64,000 nucleotides of DNA from a virus, in the IMG/VR virus record IMGVR_UViG_3300045988_096244; one strand, 5' to 3'. Positions 33,041 through 44,743 of this stretch are shown here, in pieces; the first letter of the stretch is position 1, and each line of letters starts with the position of its first letter. The position numbers were made by a program, and so were the translations under genes. The notes under the pieces are model-generated. The model was not told where the DNA came from, did not search any database, and saw nothing but the letters and a program-made list of their open reading frames with translations.

Positions 33041-33114
<74 letters not shown>

Positions 33115-33164
33115 CAAGATGAATCTTTACTTTGCGCTGTGGACCGCGAGTCCTGATTCACCCC

Positions 33165-33206
33165 GGGTATCAGACTGTAGGGATATAGACTGATACCCAT
33201 TTTTAT
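33165..33206 (+). terminator. terminator-like hairpin plus T-tract ending at the 5' end of tRNA-Pro
   Basis: gggtatcag 33165-33173 / ctgataccc 33190-33198, then atttttat. Confidence 0.4.
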
Positions 33207-33281
33207 ACGGAAGTAGCACAGTCCGGTTAGTGTACTTGCTTTGGGAGCAAGGGGTCGCAGGTTCGAATCCTGTCTTCCGTA
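33207..33281 (+). tRNA. tRNA-Pro (anticodon TGG)
   Basis: Acceptor acggaag/cttccgt, anticodon arm cttgc-ttTGGga-gcaag, T arm gcagg-ttcgaat-cctgt. Confidence 0.85.
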
Positions 33282-33393
33282 CAAGGGCTATATGCTGGGT
33301 CATAACCGGAGATACGACCTCCAGCTAGCAATGGGCAATAACCCGGTACGAGATACCAAAAGCTCATAATTAAAGTCGAAGGCTATAGCTCTA

Positions 33394-33430
33394 GGAGATG
33401 AGCGAAGAACAGTACCTCATCTCCCCTTTT
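33394..33430 (+). terminator. terminator-like hairpin plus T-tract just upstream of tRNA-Leu
   Basis: ggagatgag 33394-33402 / ctcatctcc 33416-33424, then ccttttg. Confidence 0.4.
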
Positions 33431-33436
33431 GTAAAG

Positions 33437-33519
33437 GCTCGGATGGAGAAATAGGTAAACTCATCAGATTTAAGCTCTGACGGTCATTGACCTTGCGGGT
33501 TCGATTCCCGCTCCGAGTA
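33437..33519 (+). tRNA. tRNA-Leu (anticodon TAA), class II with long variable arm
   Basis: Acceptor gctcgga/tccgagt, anticodon arm tcaga-ttTAAgc-tctga, variable arm ggtc-att-gacc, T arm gcggg-ttcgatt-cccgc. Confidence 0.85.
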
Positions 33520-33534
33520 CAAAATACCCTTAAC

Positions 33535-34844: not shown

Positions 34845-36413
34845 ATGGAGTCAAGATATGCTATACTAAAGAGTTTCTCACAAGTCAAGCGGCTTGTGAA
34901 AGCTTGTTTAAGAACTGGCCTAGCTTCCGTCGACTTCGAGACAAATGCTGAAGGTATCTATAACAAATCTTTCAAACCAACCATCCTATCAGTAACTTTT
35001 CAGGTAGGTTCTGGTGTATCAATCCCTTTATGTCATCATGAATATAACAACCCTCATTGGAAACGTTGGTTAAAGTATTTTGGTAGGCATGTGATTGAAA
35101 ATCCTAAAATAACTAAAGTAGGATGGAATCTGAAGTTTGACCTTCAGATATTCGAGTTATTTGGGATATATGTTAGAGGTACTGTTCTGGACGGAATGCT
35201 TATGAAGTATCTCCTAAATGAGGAGAAACCTAATGACCTGAAATCAATGGTTAGAAGGTATCTACCAGAACACGGAGATTACGAAAAGTCGGATAAGTTT
35301 GATAAGATACCATGGGACAAGAAACCATTGGAACCCTTATGCAAATACGGTTGCCAGGATACGGATTATACCTTAAGATTATCTATGTTCTTTGAGAGCA
35401 AGTTAATTGAGATAGGTATGTATCCATTATTTAGGCATTTGATAATGCCAGCATCCAGGGTACTCCAACATGCAGAGAAAACTGGGTTATACCTTGATAG
35501 GGAATTCAATCAGGAATTGCTTAAATCCTACAAGCCAAAGATTGACCAAGCAACTGCTAATTGCTTGAATCTTCCCAGAGTAAAGAAATTCTCTAGATGG
35601 CTTACCGAACAGAGAATAAGCAAATACCTGGAGTCCATAGAAAGTGAACTTGAAGATATGGATTATAGAGACCCTGCAAATAAGAGGAAGATAGCAAGTA
35701 GGGAACAAAAGATATCCAATATCAGGGCTGGAGTATTTACAACTAAGAAAGAACTTGAATTAACTCGAGAAGTAAACTTGGGCAGTCCTATTGATTTACC
35801 TTTATTATTGTACTCTAAAAAGGGATTCAACTTCCCGGTTATCAAGTATACTAAGGATAAGAAAACAAATAGGGATACTGATAAACCCAGTACCGATGAA
35901 GACACATTGGTAGAACTTCGGTTAACGGTTAAAGACCCTGAAAGTCCCAAAGCAATCTTCCTGGATAATCTTCTCGAGTTGAGAGGGTTAAAGAAAATGT
36001 ATACAACCTATATTGAGGGATGGCATGATAAAGTTCAGGATGATGACAGGATTCACGGGCAATTCAAAATCATTGGTACTACTTCTGGCCGTTTAAGTTG
36101 CATAAGTGGAGATACTAAAGTATTAACCCAGTATGGAGAAATACCCATTATAGATATTAAAGATTGGATTGGTGAAGGGTTGTGTGCCATGACTAAAGAG
36201 GGGTGGCAATTAATAGAAAACTTCATATATAAGGGTGTTAATGATATGTATGAAGTAACACTTGAGGATGGTACTTCTATTCAATGTACTTTAGACCATA
36301 AGTTTATAACCAATCAGGGGACTAAAAGATTAGGGGAAATTTACAATAAATACCGAAATACTATTGATTCTAAAGTTAAACTTTTAAGATATGTCCCAGA
36401 CCACGAACAATAG
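34845..36413 (+). CDS. polA: DNA polymerase I (family A), N-terminal part (3'-5' exonuclease and first half of the pol domain) fused to an N-terminal split-intein fragment
   Basis: ExoI motif SVDFETN; ..HGQFKIIGTTSGRLS then CISGDTKVLT..TLDHKF.. (intein blocks A/B), stop after 104 intein residues. Confidence 0.85.
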   Translation: MESRYAILKSFSQVKRLVKACLRTGLASVDFETNAEGIYNKSFKPTILSVTFQVGSGVSIPLCHHEYNNPHWKRWLKYFGRHVIENPKITKVGWNLKFDLQIFELFGIYVRGTVLDGMLMKYLLNEEKPNDLKSMVRRYLPEHGDYEKSDKFDKIPWDKKPLEPLCKYGCQDTDYTLRLSMFFESKLIEIGMYPLFRHLIMPASRVLQHAEKTGLYLDREFNQELLKSYKPKIDQATANCLNLPRVKKFSRWLTEQRISKYLESIESELEDMDYRDPANKRKIASREQKISNIRAGVFTTKKELELTREVNLGSPIDLPLLLYSKKGFNFPVIKYTKDKKTNRDTDKPSTDEDTLVELRLTVKDPESPKAIFLDNLLELRGLKKMYTTYIEGWHDKVQDDDRIHGQFKIIGTTSGRLSCISGDTKVLTQYGEIPIIDIKDWIGEGLCAMTKEGWQLIENFIYKGVNDMYEVTLEDGTSIQCTLDHKFITNQGTKRLGEIYNKYRNTIDSKVKLLRYVPDHEQ

Positions 36414-37445
36414 GCAAAAGGTATTTGAAGATAAATCTACTAGGGGTCCAAGGAGAAAATTAAAGCTAATAATAGAGGATGGTAAAAGGTATATAAAGAA
36501 AGAAGATCTTTTACATTACTTCTTTCAAGAGAATTGGAATATAGAAGACTTCAATTATCATTTTGGTATTGGCCATAGAATAGTGAGAGGTTCTCTATAT
36601 AAATGGTTTACTAGAGAGGAGATAGAGGAATCCCATAGAAAGAAGATTGCTAATAAACAAAGGGGTAGTAACAATTCTAATAGGGTTAATTGGTATAAGC
36701 CTCGTAAGCTTATACCTTTATTGGATTTAGAGGAAGCTATTAAAAAATCTACTTGTAAACGGGATTTGAAAGAAAGATTACAATTAACTACTTGGGAATT
36801 GTCTTCTATACAGCAATTCTATAATTTTAAGCTCCCTAATAAATCTTCTTTACTCAATACTAAACTCCAGTATTCTCTTTCTAAAGAAGATGTAAAACTC
36901 TTATGTAAAGTTATTACAGGAATGCAATTGGAAGACCTATTTTTCTCTAATACTCCTCAAGCTATCTACAAAATAGATTGTCTTGTTTGGGAACTTAAGA
37001 AGATTAACCGCTCTCTTAGAAGAGCTTTTAGGAAACCTATAGTAGCTCAGGGTATTAAGTTTTCTACTAATTTGATAGAATATAAATTCCACAAAGCTTT
37101 AGAAAAAATGGGTATAGAACATGAAATACAGTATTACATACCCGAACATAATATACACCTAGACTTTTTAATACAAGGTCACTACAACTTAGAATTAGAT
37201 GGAAATTTACATGAAAAAGAAGCAGATATGGATAGAGACTATGTTCTCAAATCCCTTGGCTATAAAGTTATACGATTAGATTTAAAAACCCTTGGTATCA
37301 CTAGATTTTCAAAAGAAAAGGAGGTAAGAAAATGTATAAAGAAGTTGGTATTACCCAAGTTAAATTCGTAGGTAGAAATGGGGTATATGATTTATCAGTT
37401 ATGAACTGTCATCAATTTGTGGCTAATAATATCTTAAATCACAAT
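36099..37445 (+). mobile_element. split intein (IntN 36099-36410, IntC 37332-37445) with an embedded free-standing homing endonuclease gene
   Basis: Cys1 codon tgc 36099-36101; IntC ends ..NNILHN, then Ser+1 at 37446. Removing it restores TTSGRLS-SSEPNLQQIP. Confidence 0.8.
36391..37371 (+). CDS. free-standing homing endonuclease, Vsr/DUF559-like PD-(D/E)XK C-terminal domain
   Basis: Different frame from both pol halves and overlaps both; very AT-rich; EHEIQYYIPEHNIHLDFLIQGHYNLELDGNLHEKEADMDRDYVLKSLGYKVIRL. Confidence 0.7.
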   Translation: MSQTTNNRQKVFEDKSTRGPRRKLKLIIEDGKRYIKKEDLLHYFFQENWNIEDFNYHFGIGHRIVRGSLYKWFTREEIEESHRKKIANKQRGSNNSNRVNWYKPRKLIPLLDLEEAIKKSTCKRDLKERLQLTTWELSSIQQFYNFKLPNKSSLLNTKLQYSLSKEDVKLLCKVITGMQLEDLFFSNTPQAIYKIDCLVWELKKINRSLRRAFRKPIVAQGIKFSTNLIEYKFHKALEKMGIEHEIQYYIPEHNIHLDFLIQGHYNLELDGNLHEKEADMDRDYVLKSLGYKVIRLDLKTLGITRFSKEKEVRKCIKKLVLPKLNS

Positions 37446-38480
37446 TCTAGTGAACCTAACCTTCAGCAAATACCTAAAACCTCCGTAGATGCTAACATAA
37501 AGAAACAGTTAGTAGCTCCTAAAGGAAAGTTATATATGGCACTTGACTACTCTCAGGCAGAGTTAAGAATCATGGCTCACCTTTCCGGGGATGAAACTTA
37601 TCTCGAGGCTTTTGCAAAGGGTCAGGACCCTCACCTTGCTATTGCAGCAAAGAAGTATGGTGTATCGTACGATGAAGCAAACCAAGCTTATAGTGACGAG
37701 CAACATCCAGATTACAAGGTTTGGAAGAACAGGAGAAAGCAGGCAAAGCAGATATGTTTTGGTATTATCTATGGTATTCAAAAGAAACTACTTGCAGTTA
37801 AACTGTCTGACCCAAAAGCGGGTATCATTGTAACACCCGATGAAGCTCAACAGCAATTGAATGAGTTCTTCCAGGAACACCCCAAGATTAAGAAGTTCAT
37901 GATTAACCAGGAGAAGGTACTGATTGAGCATGGATATATTAAATCTCTGTTTGGTAGGAAGAGAAGGTTACCACAAGTATATTCTGACAATGAGCAAGAG
38001 GCAGCATACGCAGTAAGATTATCAGTTAACATGCCATGTCAATCAGCTGCATCTGATATGACTCTGTTTGCATCCATACTCAATTATTGGAAAATACGAC
38101 AAGGTATACTTCCACCACTGCTTGAAACCTGTACAGTACATGATGCCGTTTATTACTTGGCAGACCCTGAGTATATAAATATATTCACGGTGTACAATAT
38201 ATGGGAGACTTGCCGTAACCCAAGTACAAAAGAGTATTTCAAATTTGAAATCAACGATGTAGATATGTCAATGGACTTTACTATCGGACGTTCGATGGCT
38301 GAGGAGTTGCCATATATACCTGGATATGACTATAGAAAAATGCTTCAACCCGATTTTAATGTGGAGAAGTATTTGGAAGAACACCGTAAGTGGAAAGACT
38401 TATCCATCAAGGAGTTCCCCAAGAAGTTCCCCGAATACTTTAAGAAGGATTACTCATGGAGAAAGGAAAAGGTGGTATAG
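37332..38480 (+). CDS. polA: C-terminal split-intein fragment fused to the DNA polymerase I C-terminal part (motifs A, B, C)
   Basis: MYKEVGITQVKF..VYDLSV..HQFVANNILNHN|SSEPNLQQIP; LDYSQAELRIMAH (A), RRKQAKQICFGIIYG (B), TVHDAV (C). Confidence 0.85.
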   Translation: MYKEVGITQVKFVGRNGVYDLSVMNCHQFVANNILNHNSSEPNLQQIPKTSVDANIKKQLVAPKGKLYMALDYSQAELRIMAHLSGDETYLEAFAKGQDPHLAIAAKKYGVSYDEANQAYSDEQHPDYKVWKNRRKQAKQICFGIIYGIQKKLLAVKLSDPKAGIIVTPDEAQQQLNEFFQEHPKIKKFMINQEKVLIEHGYIKSLFGRKRRLPQVYSDNEQEAAYAVRLSVNMPCQSAASDMTLFASILNYWKIRQGILPPLLETCTVHDAVYYLADPEYINIFTVYNIWETCRNPSTKEYFKFEINDVDMSMDFTIGRSMAEELPYIPGYDYRKMLQPDFNVEKYLEEHRKWKDLSIKEFPKKFPEYFKKDYSWRKEKVV

Positions 38481-38917
38481 TACGTCTATCCCAGATTAAG
38501 AAAAATACTCTGAAGATTCTGTTTCAAGGTAAAACCTATGAGATTGATTTAGACCAGGAACTCATGATTGATGAGAACCTGGTCAATCAGTCTTTACGTA
38601 GAAGTCCATCCAATTACGCTTTATTGGTAATGGTAAGGGATAGGCTTATATATAAAAGGGATAAACTTGAAAAGGCCAAGGACCAAGCTTATAGCAAGGC
38701 ATGGCTTTACTACAAGGAGTCAGGTAACATCAACAACGATGCTGCAGCACATAAAGCTGAAAATAACCAAGCCTATCAAGGGGCTTTGAAAAGGTATATG
38801 AAGGCTGAGTATAATGCAAGTAAGTTTATAAGCATCTGCAAAGCCTATGAATCAAGGGAAAATATATTAAGAACCATAAGTGCGAACATAAGGGTACAAG
38901 ATGGATTTAAGAGATAA
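38456..38917 (+). CDS. hypothetical protein
   Basis: 153-aa ORF overlapping the pol stop. Confidence 0.5.
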   Translation: MEKGKGGIVRLSQIKKNTLKILFQGKTYEIDLDQELMIDENLVNQSLRRSPSNYALLVMVRDRLIYKRDKLEKAKDQAYSKAWLYYKESGNINNDAAAHKAENNQAYQGALKRYMKAEYNASKFISICKAYESRENILRTISANIRVQDGFKR

Positions 38918-39441
38918 CCATCCCTATTTAATAGGGTATCATATTTCTAATGTAGGTAAAATATACAGTAGAGTAAAGGGTTATTGGAGAGAATTAACTC
39001 CTCGTATCAATAGAGAGGGATATCTTAGGATAAAATTAAATGGTAAGCAATACTCAATACATAAATTAGTTGCTGAAGCTTATATACCTAATTCGGAAAA
39101 TAAGCCCCTGTGTATGTCATAAGGATAACAATAAGCTAAACAATTCGGTTGATAACTTGTATTGGGGAACACAAAAGGAGAACTTAGAACAAATGATTAA
39201 AGACGGTAGGAGTTTGAAAGGTAGAAGAAACCCTATGTGGAAAAATCATTATAATTCTGGTTATGGTAGATATGGAGAAAAAGCAACAGCTAGTAAACTA
39301 TCAAACAAAGATAGAATAAGTATAGTTAAAAGTCTAAACTCGGGTATAAGTATAGATACTTTATCCAAAAGATACAAAGTATCAAGAGCCTGTATTAGAA
39401 GTCAAATAAGAATAGTGTCAAACTTACGTAAACAACAATAA
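38901..39441 (+). pseudogene. HNH homing endonuclease (NUMOD4/HNH_3/HTH) disrupted by a +1 frameshift in a C-run
   Basis: ORFs 38901..39122 and 39070..39441 are the two halves. aagCCCCtgtgtatgtcataaggataac (C4 at 39105-39108) versus aagCCCtgtgtatgtcataaggataac in the intact copy near 23875. Confidence 0.75.
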
Positions 39442-40683: not shown

Positions 40684-41874
40684 ATGGCACGAAAGGCAAG
40701 AGCTCCTAAAAAATCCGGAGGTCATAAATTCAAAATACCAACACAAAACGAGATACTCAAGAAATATGGGTCATCTCTCCAATTCAAAGCCAGTACCATA
40801 AATCATCACGGGTTATGGATTCCTTCAACCTTCTTTGCTCTCAATTATCAGATGGGTGGTGGTGTACCATTCGGAAAGATAATCGAAATAATGGGAGAGG
40901 AATCATCGGGTAAATCTCTGATAGCATATAACTTTGCGTATGCAACTCAGCAACTCGGGGGTCATGTAATCTGGGTGGATGCAGAACAAGCTTGGATGAA
41001 CTCATGGGCTGAAGAGAATGGTCTGGACCCTGAAAGGGTAACAGTACTGAACGACACCCGAATAGAAACCATATCTGATGCTATAGCAGACTTGGCAATC
41101 TATTGGAGGTCAAAACTCACTAACAACGAACCTATTATCGTTGTGATAGACTCTATAGCAGCCTTGGATTCAATAGAAGCCATAGATGCAAAGATGGCTG
41201 ACGGTAAAGCCGAAATGGGTAACCGAGCAAAACAGATATACAAGATGTTCCGAATCAGGAATGAACTGTTCTATCGGTTGGGAGTAACTATGGTATGTAT
41301 CAACCAATTACGTAGTAAACTGGGAGCAGGCTTCGGTCAAGATACAAGTACTACTCCCGGAGGTGCAGCACTCAAGTTCTATGCTTCAATACGGTTGGCT
41401 TTCTATTCGGGTAAGACTCTGAAGATTAAGTATAAGGGTAAAGAAAGACGGGCAGGTAAATATGTAACTGTCCAAATGAAAAAGAATAAGGTATCTCCCC
41501 CAAGAGAAACCATATCTAAGGCCCCTATATATTTCAATCCAAAATATCACGAGGTAGGGTTTGACAGATATTTCTGGTTGGAAGAGTCACTGGAAGATGC
41601 GGGTGTAATTGAAAAACTCGGTGGTGGAACATATATGTTCGAGGGGAGTAAGTTATGCCGAGGAGAAGATGCCTTCCACAAGTTGATTGAAGAGGATGCT
41701 GAACTTCGAAAGAAACTTCTTAAGGCTGCAGGTATAAATACTATAGGAACAACAAAACGCAAGATAAAGAAGATTGCACGAAACATGTTCCCTGTTGATG
41801 CAGACTTAGACTATGAATCTCAAATAGAATCTGATGATACAGAAGAAGACGAATACATCCCGGACGAGGGGTAG
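40684..41874 (+). CDS. RecA/UvsX-family recombinase
   Basis: GGGVPFGKIIEIMGEESSGKSL (Walker A), IIVVIDSIAAL (Walker B), CINQLR; acidic C-terminus. Confidence 0.85.
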   Translation: MARKARAPKKSGGHKFKIPTQNEILKKYGSSLQFKASTINHHGLWIPSTFFALNYQMGGGVPFGKIIEIMGEESSGKSLIAYNFAYATQQLGGHVIWVDAEQAWMNSWAEENGLDPERVTVLNDTRIETISDAIADLAIYWRSKLTNNEPIIVVIDSIAALDSIEAIDAKMADGKAEMGNRAKQIYKMFRIRNELFYRLGVTMVCINQLRSKLGAGFGQDTSTTPGGAALKFYASIRLAFYSGKTLKIKYKGKERRAGKYVTVQMKKNKVSPPRETISKAPIYFNPKYHEVGFDRYFWLEESLEDAGVIEKLGGGTYMFEGSKLCRGEDAFHKLIEEDAELRKKLLKAAGINTIGTTKRKIKKIARNMFPVDADLDYESQIESDDTEEDEYIPDEG

Positions 41875-42784: not shown

Positions 42785-43430
42785 ATATCAAATTATGTTT
42801 ACAGGTGTTTCCGGAGTAGGGAAAACAACCATTGCAAAGGAAGTATCGGAAATGTTGAAGATACCCTTTATATCTGGTTCATACTCTGACCTGGTACCAG
42901 AAACAAAAGACATGCCCCACGCTGACATGATTCAGCAGGATGCAAAGACAGTATTCATGCAGGATATGCAGGTACTCAATCTTCGTAACAAAGCCTTTCG
43001 AGGGGAGGATAACTTTGTAACTGACAGGTCATACTTTGACTCTGCAGCATACTTCATCAATAAGTTATCTCATAGGTTGGCAGAGTGTGACCTGGACCAT
43101 GCTATAGACTTATGCAAAATGCTACTTGGTCAACAGTGTACTCACTTGATATTCATACCATTCTCCTCAAGCTTTTTCAAGGACTGGGTAACCGAGGATA
43201 ACGGGAAACGAGTACTGTCAAAGTACTATCAGTTCCAAGTTTCTCAGGTTATGTATGGATTACTTGACCTGTGGGGGTACAAGCCAGATTCCAAAGTAAT
43301 GCAAGTCGTGGATGGAATACCAAGTACTGGTACTCTGGAAATAATGGGTTACAAGGTAAAGGTTCTCATATTAGATGAGATGAACTACGAAAAGAGAAAG
43401 CATCTAATAAGGAAATTTCTTCAGTTATGA
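42771..43430 (+). CDS. P-loop kinase (dNMP / nucleoside-kinase-like)
   Basis: IMFTGVSGVGKTTIAKEV Walker A near the N-terminus; 219 aa, kinase-sized. Confidence 0.45.
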   Translation: MYNGKYQIMFTGVSGVGKTTIAKEVSEMLKIPFISGSYSDLVPETKDMPHADMIQQDAKTVFMQDMQVLNLRNKAFRGEDNFVTDRSYFDSAAYFINKLSHRLAECDLDHAIDLCKMLLGQQCTHLIFIPFSSSFFKDWVTEDNGKRVLSKYYQFQVSQVMYGLLDLWGYKPDSKVMQVVDGIPSTGTLEIMGYKVKVLILDEMNYEKRKHLIRKFLQL

Positions 43431-44743
43431 AGGTAGATAAGGTGGATAATATTAAAGACTTCCCGGGATATTATATTTCTCGGGAAGGTTTTTTATATAG
43501 TAGGTATGATAAGGTAGGCCGTTTAACAGACACTTATAAGAGAAATAAGACATATGTAAGGTCTAACGGTTATGTACAAGTGGTATTGAAAATACGAAAG
43601 GAGAATAGATTACGTAGAGTATATATACATAGGTTAGTAGCTGAAACTTATATCCCTAATCCATATAATAATCCCTGTGTAGGACATAGGGATAATAATA
43701 GAGAGAATAACTCTGTAGAGAACCTATATTGGTGTACTCATAAGGAGAATACTCAACAGTGTATAGATGACGGTCGTATGAACTTTAGGCCTAAACTACA
43801 ATTCTTATTATTTTCAGACTTACACATATCAGACTATAAGAAGTTTCCAAGTAGAGAGCATAGTGGATTTAGAGTATTGGATATTATATCTCAACGATGT
43901 GAAAAGCTTGGAGTACCCGCAGTACATGTGGGTGATTTGATACATAGACCTGAGGTTATAAGCAATGAGTTATTGTACAGGTTAATAAAAGAGTTTAATC
44001 AATTATCTCATCGTAAGTGGAAATTATATTCTATATCGGGTAATCATTGTATAAGTACTCGTAGTGAAATAGGCCATAAACCAATTTCATGGGATAGAAC
44101 TTTATCTATGATATACCCATGGTTTAAGTGTATAGATTACAAAAGAGTTCATGTAGATAAATGTTATATATATGGAATACCTTATATAGACCATAATATA
44201 GGTTTATCTAAATACATATCAGAACTAAAGCTTACTGGCAGTAAAAGAAGTAAACACATACTCCTATTACATACTGACTATCCTGGGGCAAAGGATACGG
44301 ACGGTACAGTAGTAAACAGTGTAGAGAACCTGAATATAAATTCTATATCAAAGTTTGACTTAACTCTTTGTGGGCATATACACAAACCCCAGAGGTTAGG
44401 TAAGAAGGTGTATATGGTAGGTTCACCATATCAACAACGTAGAACTGATAAGAATTGTGAATTGGGCTACTGGGAAGTATACTCAGATATGTCACTTAAA
44501 TTTATACCGTTAAATGATTTTCCTAAATTTGTGGATGTATCATCAGAGGATGAAATTAAAGATGACGGCAATTATTATACTGTTGTTGCTAGCAAGTCTC
44601 GGGTTGTGGCGGTGGAAGATACCCCGCAAATAACTCGGGAACTTACTAAGAAATCCATGGTACGCAGATATATGAAAGCCAAAGGCATAAAAGACAAAGA
44701 AAAGAAGGCCACATTATTAAAGGTAATAAAGGAGGCAGAATGA
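43427..44743 (+). CDS. sbcD: HNH endonuclease domain fused in frame to an SbcD/Mre11 (gp47-like) nuclease
   Basis: aa 1-117 are NUMOD4/HNH (FPGYYISREGFLYS..HRLVAETYIPNPYNNPCVGHRDNNRENNSVENLYWCTHKEN). From M118 (ATG 43778): MNFRPKLQFLLFSDLHISDY, HVGDLIH, SGNHC, LLLHTD, CGHIH phosphoesterase motifs. Confidence 0.75.
   Translation: MKVDKVDNIKDFPGYYISREGFLYSRYDKVGRLTDTYKRNKTYVRSNGYVQVVLKIRKENRLRRVYIHRLVAETYIPNPYNNPCVGHRDNNRENNSVENLYWCTHKENTQQCIDDGRMNFRPKLQFLLFSDLHISDYKKFPSREHSGFRVLDIISQRCEKLGVPAVHVGDLIHRPEVISNELLYRLIKEFNQLSHRKWKLYSISGNHCISTRSEIGHKPISWDRTLSMIYPWFKCIDYKRVHVDKCYIYGIPYIDHNIGLSKYISELKLTGSKRSKHILLLHTDYPGAKDTDGTVVNSVENLNINSISKFDLTLCGHIHKPQRLGKKVYMVGSPYQQRRTDKNCELGYWEVYSDMSLKFIPLNDFPKFVDVSSEDEIKDDGNYYTVVASKSRVVAVEDTPQITRELTKKSMVRRYMKAKGIKDKEKKATLLKVIKEAE

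Follow-up and report, generated by a model that had tools for sequence, protein, structure and literature searches.

Split-intein halves and a Vsr-like endonuclease gene within the DNA polymerase I gene of an uncultured human-gut phage: a candidate fractured gene

What interrupts the DNA polymerase I gene (polA) of an uncultured human-gut phage, and how could one polymerase be produced from two separately encoded parts? The material is a 64,000-nucleotide (nt) stretch from the IMG/VR record IMGVR_UViG_3300045988_096244, called here the window (always the whole stretch), whose polA locus lies between positions 34845 and 38480; L-numbers (L001, etc.) designate the related loci or contigs compared with it. 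We propose, with a probability of about 85%, that the locus is a "fractured gene", in which the halves of a split intein would flank a free-standing Vsr-like endonuclease gene.

The locus contains three overlapping open reading frames (ORFs), all on the plus strand, at 34845..36413 (N ORF, 522 amino acids, aa), 36391..37371 (middle ORF, 326 aa) and 37332..38480 (C ORF, 382 aa). The N and C ORFs share one frame (34845 and 37332 are both 0 mod 3), which is closed by about 50 stop codons in the 918 nt between them. Frame +1 is used by the middle ORF, which shares 23 nt with the N ORF and 40 nt with the C ORF. The first 418 residues of the N ORF are the N-extein (34845..36098), consisting of the PolA 3′-5′ exonuclease domain (DNA_pol_A_exo1, E 2.7e-19) and the polymerase's N-terminal portion (DNA_pol_A positions 23-123). 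Its end, ...IIGTTSGRLS, passes directly into CISGDTKV..., the start of a 104-aa N-intein half (36099..36413, Cys1...DHEQ, matched by TIGR01445) with the Cys1 codon TGC at 36099-36101 and the stop codon TAG at 36411-36413. The C ORF, whose ATG lies within the 3′ end of the endonuclease gene, opens with the 38-aa C-intein half (37332..37445; MYKEVGITQVKFVGRNGVYDLSVMNCHQFVANNILNHN), which matches positions 124-155 of the 155 of Intein_splicing. It reads MYKEVGITQVKF...NILNHN, with the terminal Asn codon at 37443-37445, and is followed from Ser+1 (37446-37448) by the 344-aa C-extein (37446..38480, SSEPNLQQIP...) with the remaining polymerase motifs (DNA_pol_A positions 123-349, E 6.7e-52). The Pfam DNA_pol_A profile halts at position 123 in the N ORF and restarts at 123 in the C ORF.

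The cassette between the GRLS and SSEPN codons of this conserved polymerase motif measures 1347 nt and is AT-rich, with a GC content of 0.312 compared with 0.378 and 0.399 for the exteins. Its excision restores TTSGRLS|SSEPNLQQIP, the sequence of uninterrupted related polA alleles. One of them, the 764-aa PolA of GenBank MT836181 (L001, from human faeces), reads ...IIGTTSGRLSSSEPNLQQIP..., and an empty-site polA (L014 or L055) reads ...GGTAGATTAAGT|AGTTCTGAACC... around the insertion point. The predicted spliced PolA has 762 aa, and trypsin would cut its splice junction as ...GTTSGR/LSSSEPNLQQIPK. A sequence-only reading of the window had already placed split-intein halves of 104 and 38 aa at these coordinates, with Cys1 at 36099, in one frame and 918 nt apart with stops between them, and had seen the family-A motif recreated by their removal; the ORF and profile analysis, the stop count and the L001 PolA bear all of this out, while the spliced product of ~800 aa that it expected has to be shortened to the length given above.

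The prediction that the two pieces form a class-1 split intein, that is, a HINT splicing domain, is supported by several comparisons. Taken singly, the halves matched complementary parts of Pfam Intein_splicing, each below threshold. When fused, they reached 45.3 bits with Intein_splicing (PF14890, cut-off 35.8, E 1e-11) and 46.1 bits with TIGR01445 (cut-off 24.5), so that their intein identity is far beyond chance. The N ORF alone matched TIGR01445 (intein_Nterm) over residues 419-489, starting exactly at Cys419, with 37.7 bits against the same cut-off of 24.5. The alignment of both ORFs with PolA and with intein profiles, which the sequence-only reading had put forward as a check, was in this way favourable to it. 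Among PDB sequences the fused intein matched the Npu DnaB mini-intein (4o1r, E 9e-10), the DnaE split inteins 7qil, 4kl5 and 2keq (E 1e-7 to 1e-8) and the fractured-gene intein gp41-1 (6qaz, E 4e-6), in alignments extending over both halves. The break is located at the same position as the split point of Npu DnaE, which is the canonical endonuclease-insertion point, and the C-intein aligns both with Npu DnaE-C and with blocks F and G of the Npu DnaB mini-intein. The halves belong to two separately encoded polypeptides, the first ending at its own stop codon and the second beginning at its own start codon, and the split lies between blocks B and F. The window intein has Cys1, the block B TLDH (Thr64/His67), the block F VYDLS, the terminal HN and Ser+1; in 12 distinct alleles, with intein identity down to ~50%, Cys1, the block B CTLDH, the block F Asp, HN and Ser+1 are invariant, as is the initiator Met of the C ORF. 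The invariance of the catalytic residues argues for catalytically competent splicing, and from it, together with dN/dS ratios well below 1 (given further on), we infer protein trans-splicing by the two intein halves.

The middle ORF is predicted to encode a Vsr-like/DUF559 homing endonuclease, a prediction supported by profile, family alignment and structural model. Pfam DUF559 matched aa 257-296 with 22.8 bits (cut-off 20.6). A database search collected relatives in 36 clusters, full-length (~320 aa) and 47-100% identical. In the family alignment E230 is invariant and D258, E268, D270, H274, D279, R282 and D283 are near-invariant; D258, E268, D270, H274 and D283 are kept in at least 90% of 35 sequences. 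As judged by sequence comparison, these residues follow the acidic/His pattern known from the Vsr-like "EDxHD" family (PMC3239194). An AlphaFold2 (AF2) model built from the family alignment reached a predicted local distance difference test (pLDDT) score of 81. In a Foldseek search with this model the best specific PDB match was 3r3p, the catalytic domain of I-Bth0305I (template modelling score 0.60-0.65, target-normalised; probability 1.0), and the named top viral fold matches (BFVD) were mostly DUF559 proteins, "DNA mismatch endonuclease" and phage homing endonucleases. The family profile matched 3hrl ("Endonuclease-Like Protein") in the PDB with E 0.03. The Vsr/DUF559 character that the sequence-only reading had seen in the C-terminus, and the fold prediction that it had advised, are thereby upheld. 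A phmmer search of PDB sequences gave nothing meaningful, and the family was recovered via Pfam, the family profile and the fold comparison. Two regions can be distinguished, an N-terminal one (~aa 1-225), well conserved and confidently folded (pLDDT 73-90), and a C-terminal Vsr-like/DUF559 nuclease of the EDxHD type (~aa 228-300). The near-invariant Cys315 (codon TGT) overlaps the invariant ATG of the C-intein (xxA TGT, window 37332-37334). Owing to this overlap, part of the conservation at the C-terminus of the endonuclease may be imposed by the start codon and the intein block, not by nuclease function.

An IMG/VR scan with the C ORF gave 62 loci. About 50 of them are empty-site, with a related polA reading GRLS|S(S/Q)EPN uninterrupted, and six have the same three-ORF cassette at the same site, five with 93/88/84% identity to the window (N-intein/endonuclease/C-intein) and the sixth, L011, with 53/53/57%. 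Three loci, together with GenBank MT121964 (L002), have a different, contiguous intein with HNH-like motifs 7 residues upstream; a paper describing MT121964 was searched for and none was found. Over IMG/VR, ENA and Logan, the three-ORF layout recurs at the same site in more than 20 independent contigs, with alleles down to ~50% identity. The distant members of the endonuclease family that were sampled, through their encoding contigs and a second IMG/VR scan, all have the same polA layout on 76-86-kb gut-phage contigs and, down to 47% identity, are all placed between the same intein halves at GRLS|S. SRR8849283 is one example of a gut sample containing phages of this kind. Wherever all three ORFs are readable, each keeps its own frame, stop and start (the endonuclease of L010/L076 being truncated), and the overlaps vary among alleles, with 11, 14, 20 or 23 nt between the N ORF and the endonuclease and 22, 31 or 40 nt between the endonuclease and the C ORF. 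The window exteins are closely related to those of uninterrupted genes: the N-extein is 92% identical to the L001 PolA and 97-99% to the empty-site L003, L004 and L014, the C-extein is 97-98% identical to the empty-site L003-L006 and L012, and the extein protein of L003 is 98-99% identical to that of the window. A tblastn search of 50,697 GenBank phage records left the endonuclease unmatched and the nearest cultured-phage PolA is less than 30% identical, so no isolate is available.

The selection acting on the cassette was estimated as the ratio of nonsynonymous to synonymous divergence (dN/dS) by the Nei-Gojobori method on non-overlapping ORF parts. Between the window and L072, the closest allele pair, the ratio was 0.09 for the N-intein, 0.13 for the endonuclease and 0.05 for the C-intein; distant pairs gave 0.1-0.4 for the cassette, and the exteins ~0.05. 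Judged from these ratios, all three cassette frames are under purifying selection. The synonymous divergence (dS) between the window and L072 is 0.3-0.7 in the cassette and ~1.5 or saturated in the exteins; being so far below that of the exteins, it indicates that the cassette has passed from one polA background into another.

Three cassette-bearing alleles each have an empty counterpart that is nearly identical in other respects, and in two of these pairs co-conversion tracts adjoin the site. Compared with the empty L014, 27 of the 38 N-extein mismatches of the window are at -163 to -7 of the site (binomial P ~1e-15) and all are synonymous, defining a putative upstream tract at 35936..36098, the final 163 nt before the site, that differs from the nearest empty-site alleles. 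Downstream, the mismatches are at +1, +2, +4 and +5, where Ser-Ser (37446..37450) is spelled TCT AGT in the window but AGT TCT in its nearest empty alleles; beyond these codons the sequences are near-identical, the next mismatch being at +75. L011 and the empty L019 are identical over 900 nt; ~54 mismatches then fall within the 350 nt immediately upstream of the site and 13 within the 60 nt immediately downstream, and outside these tracts the two are near-identical. L007 and the empty L055 differ, the cassette aside, at 6 of 1254 nt and at 1 of 990 nt, and so represent a clean presence/absence polymorphism of the cassette. Imported tracts adjoining the cassette are what endonuclease-initiated gene conversion (homing) would predict. 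Since near-identical polA backgrounds occur with and without the cassette and tracts adjoin the site, recent transfer is indicated, and the cassette, as read from these alignments, shows clear signs of recent mobility. The endonuclease protein recurs unchanged in a second sample (L089), in a cassette 99.7% identical at the nucleotide level next to an N-extein 99.2% identical; these identities place L089 in the same lineage, ruling it out as an independent homing event.

Taking these results together, we propose the following model. The two intein halves would associate after translation and carry out class-1 protein trans-splicing: an N-S acyl shift at Cys1 would be followed by trans-esterification to Ser+1, the terminal Asn would then cyclise, and an O-N shift would complete a seamless 762-aa PolA. 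In a mixed infection the endonuclease would cut an intein-less polA near the insertion site, and repair from the cassette-bearing genome would copy the cassette together with adjoining extein sequence. The intein would make the insertion phenotypically tolerable and the endonuclease would supply the mobility. As to its origin, a free-standing endonuclease gene probably invaded a mini-intein at the position usually occupied by the endonuclease domain, as in the model of PMC2677866.

The alternative that survives best, though we regard it as improbable, is that the cassette is a molecular fossil whose intein splices and whose endonuclease is inactive or domesticated, for example for cutting competitor or host DNA. 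In favour of it, a 1-nt deletion within an A6 run shortens the endonuclease of allele L010/L076 to 241 aa and leaves both intein halves intact; this frameshift (L076, the same as L010, at about 3713 in locus coordinates) may mark the onset of endonuclease decay or be a homopolymer assembly error. However, the dN/dS of the endonuclease is 0.13-0.25 over its full length in all comparisons, its catalytic E/D/H/D residues are conserved in the 35 sequences, and the indications of recent transfer described above speak against a fossil.

A second alternative, to which we give still less credence, is that the PolA fragments are joined non-covalently, with the intein halves acting as a dimerisation module and without peptide ligation. 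Split-gene phage products assembling without splicing do exist, such as the Aeh1 NrdA split by mobE (PMC3045599) and a split SbcD-like protein (PMC2677866), and the argument for ligation is drawn from sequence. Against this, residues needed only for the chemistry (Cys1, the block B Thr/His, the penultimate His, the terminal Asn and Ser+1) are invariant across alleles as little as ~50% identical, and the break interrupts TTSGRLS|SSEPNLQ, a contiguous catalytic motif that 142 additional residues would probably disrupt.

It could also be supposed that the locus is a contiguous intein with an in-frame endonuclease, the frame changes being sequencing or assembly errors or programmed frameshifts, since the three ORFs overlap pairwise and shifts of +1 within 36391-36413 and -1 within 37332-37371 could give one long ORF. 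We consider this highly improbable. More than 20 contigs, assembled independently from separate samples and databases and with alleles as distant as 50-67% identity among them, have this arrangement of frames with their own stops and starts, which excludes an assembly artefact, one of the outcomes that the sequence-only reading had named as refuting it. Moreover, the overlap lengths differ among alleles and the ATG of the C ORF is invariant, the second sample L089 has the exact endonuclease protein in its 99.7% identical cassette, and apart from one preprint (10.1101/2025.01.02.630785) Vsr-like endonucleases have been reported only with split inteins. That polA is a decaying pseudogene replaced by another polymerase, as its interruption and the frameshifts in neighbouring small endonuclease genes might suggest, is equally improbable given the extein dN/dS of ~0.05, the extein ORFs intact in all alleles, the absence of another DNA polymerase among the window ORFs scanned and the intact replication module around it.

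Several points nevertheless weigh against the fractured-gene reading. Its case for splicing and for cleavage is a computational one. Single-sequence AF2 of the fused intein was uninformative (pLDDT 43) and was not used, so the HINT fold rests on sequence profiles. A search of limited sensitivity for a contiguous (unsplit) relative of the split intein gave only fragments with an N or a C half, and the origin of the split therefore remains a model. In the N-terminal 225 aa of the endonuclease the Pfam scan showed neither NUMOD nor any known DNA-binding or other family; an SH..KI..KQ.G..NSN motif resembles NUMOD3 by eye alone. The phages are mosaic, the 3′ third of polA recombining, and for this reason the flank tracts could partly be ordinary recombination. 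Finally, the GGAGG preceding the C-ORF ATG is allele-specific in a genome largely devoid of Shine-Dalgarno (SD) motifs.

The expression signals of the locus were analyzed as well. The GGAGG before the ATG at 37332 was considered as a sign of independent initiation and rejected, as it is absent in 8 of 10 alleles. An SD-like motif occurs upstream of 9 of the 60 window ORFs (plus strand, at least 120 aa), and the leaders are A-rich. With SD motifs so scarce, the host may be one that initiates translation independently of SD pairing, such as a member of the Bacteroidota, and the ORF overlaps may point to translational coupling. Scans of the locus for promoters and terminators yielded no more hits than shuffled sequence did. 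A possible RNA hairpin covers the AUG of the endonuclease (36361..36399, plus strand); it is strong in L011 (z -5.1), present in L065 and weak in the window allele, which folds differently (z -2.3). Over 9 alleles 80% of the hairpin cells are paired, against 35-43% in slid controls, with only 1 compensatory change; as the region also encodes conserved intein residues, coding constraint may account for the pairing. A hairpin placed at the endonuclease start codon or ahead of it is one of the features of fractured genes in PMC2677866.

The proposed architecture is not without precedent. Dassa et al. (2009, NAR 37:2560; PMC2677866), rightly cited for this layout by the sequence-only reading, described 26-27 metagenomic loci of the same architecture, hosted by gp41, IMPDH, DnaE, NrdA, NrdJ, ligase, terminase and one unknown protein, with Vsr-like endonucleases in 12 loci and 3′ overlaps of 6-69 bp in 15 loci, and also a split SbcD-like gene with a Vsr-like ORF that is intein-less. 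Their fractured genes (gp41-1, gp41-8, NrdJ-1, IMPDH-1, NrdA-2 and DnaE-1 to DnaE-3) have the same order on one strand, N-part with N-intein, endonuclease gene, and C-intein with C-part; the window shares with them the Vsr-like type of endonuclease and a phage DNA-metabolism enzyme as host, and its half lengths of 104 and 38 aa are within their ranges of 88-105 and 33-54. The C-intein ORF begins inside the 3′ end of the endonuclease gene, with an overlap of 40 nt here and 22-40 nt in the other alleles, as compared with the 6-69 bp of the 2009 set. That set has a non-coding spacer of 27-51 nt before the endonuclease start, whereas the window has none, its ATG being 23 nt (11-23 nt among alleles) inside the N-intein ORF; the spacer describes the 2009 set and does not define the class. 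Two further differences are that family-A PolA is outside the host types of Dassa et al., and that the phages here are from the human gut while theirs were from marine and freshwater samples of the Global Ocean Sampling (GOS). In addition, the clade of the window, unlike the 2009 set, can be studied in complete genomic context and through many alleles that are empty, filled or filled differently.

I-Bth0305I, the prototype EDxHD (Vsr-like) homing endonuclease (Taylor et al. 2011, PMC3239194; PDB 3R3P), would share with the window endonuclease the C-terminal nuclease fold and, as a likeness of pattern, conserved acidic/His positions. It is bipartite, with an N-terminal DNA-binding region, which in this family often has NUMOD motifs, and a C-terminal nuclease, a layout that the window endonuclease may share. 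Both are phage-borne, with a DNA-metabolism gene as target, a putative one in the window. I-Bth0305I, however, lies in a group I intron of recA and the window endonuclease between split-intein halves of polA, and the two have no phmmer-detectable sequence similarity. The cyanobacterial DnaE split inteins (Ssp/Npu) are, like that of the window, class-1 inteins with Cys1 and the same split position; their halves are at distant loci, have no endonuclease between them and use Cys+1, whereas those of the window are 918 nt apart, enclose an endonuclease and use Ser+1.

Contiguous polA inteins occur in sister phages (L002/MT121964, L045, L049, L050, L088/MT121960, L068, L070 and L078), in the same gene and clade and likewise in catalytic motifs. 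In contrast to the window intein they are unsplit, and they are only ~30% identical to its N-intein; one of the sites (IHG|C...SN|TTSGRLS) is only 7 residues upstream of the window site. In the polA of this phage clade, inteins were observed at no fewer than four distinct sites, all within catalytic motifs: (a) that upstream site, contiguous and HNH-like, (b) GRLS|C...HN|S, the split intein, (c) DFSQ|C...HN|CEL, in motif A, and (d) NFP|C...GN|CQSA. The HNH-like motifs of the site-a intein were seen by eye, and C ORFs with inteins at sites c or d gave faint LAGLIDADG Pfam hits. The loci in which these sites were seen are L002 3001-6279, L088 1501-5766, L068 4933-8514, L070 4945-7119 and L078 3936-6110; in certain genomes the split intein is accompanied by one or two contiguous inteins, which lengthens the C ORF to 724-1193 aa. 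Inteins of the contiguous kind have been mentioned for bacterial DNA polymerase I (PMC4760082). According to the actinobacteriophage-intein preprint cited above, Vsr-like endonucleases were previously known only with split inteins, and PolA is not among the hosts that it lists. No report of a fractured PolA was found in the literature searched. The architecture itself was already described in 2009; the novelty lies in the host gene PolA, the gut-phage habitat, the population-level evidence of mobility and the complete genome setting.

The window phage is myovirus-like, with a tape-measure protein and baseplate J. Its polA is accompanied, as the sequence-only reading had maintained, by an otherwise complete replication and recombination module, with genes for DnaB-like and SF2 helicases, gp32, RecA/UvsX, a 5′-3′ exonuclease (FEN) and SbcCD and ThyA-like, dUTPase-like and Cpn10-like genes; a second DNA polymerase was not seen among the ORFs scanned. 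Upstream of polA, three tRNA genes (Met-CAT, Pro-TGG, Leu-TAA) form a GC-rich patch at 33041-33520, and the 'MTLRVRFPLRV...' ORFs that start in this region in the window and its relatives are tRNA-Leu read-throughs, probably not genes. The neighbourhood of polA is a hotspot for free-standing endonuclease genes. At 38901-39441 an extra nucleotide in a C run near 39105 breaks a free-standing HNH_3/NUMOD4 endonuclease gene into ORFs of 73 and 123 aa; in L001 (5200-5739) the corresponding ORF is intact, with 179 aa. The broken copy represents either a homing endonuclease gene in decay or a sequencing error in the homopolymer. An extra endonuclease gene of 164-165 aa (HNH_3 + HTH) directly follows polA in L001 (4285-4779), L002 (6269-6763) and L089 (5416-5913) and is absent in the window between 38480 and 38456. 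At 43427-44743 an SbcD/Mre11-like phosphoesterase (Metallophos, aa 125-321) has an HNH_3 domain at aa 65-109, which may be an endonuclease gene fused to, or inserted in, the 5′ end of sbcD. The RecA/UvsX of L066 and L067 (from 8270; window homologue 40684-41874) has 738 aa and contains an intein with a LAGLIDADG domain; the window RecA, of 396 aa, is intein-free.

If the fractured-gene reading holds, the class would extend to an essential family-A DNA polymerase and to a widespread clade of 75-85-kb uncultured human-gut phages. Because gene callers annotate such polymerases as two fragments and a "DUF559 protein", the replication modules of gut phages may be mis-scored as incomplete. More tentatively, the cassette could be a long-lived composite element of a single polA site that serves as a weapon in the competition among co-infecting gut phages, destroying or converting the polymerase gene of those that lack it; in that event its action would help to explain the inteins at four or more catalytic-motif sites in the polA of the clade. 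As a composite element, it would also make available natural split inteins of the Cys1/Ser+1 type as a new family, comprising dozens of allele pairs that are diverged and possibly orthogonal, and the pairs of 104 and 38 aa with Ser+1 could be screened as trans-splicing tools beside gp41-1, NrdJ-1 and IMPDH-1. Finally, with empty alleles, alleles with split intein and endonuclease, a possibly decaying endonuclease and contiguous-intein alleles at neighbouring sites, some of them in backgrounds that hardly differ, the clade would lend itself to studies, in a natural setting, of the homing cycle and of how split inteins arise.

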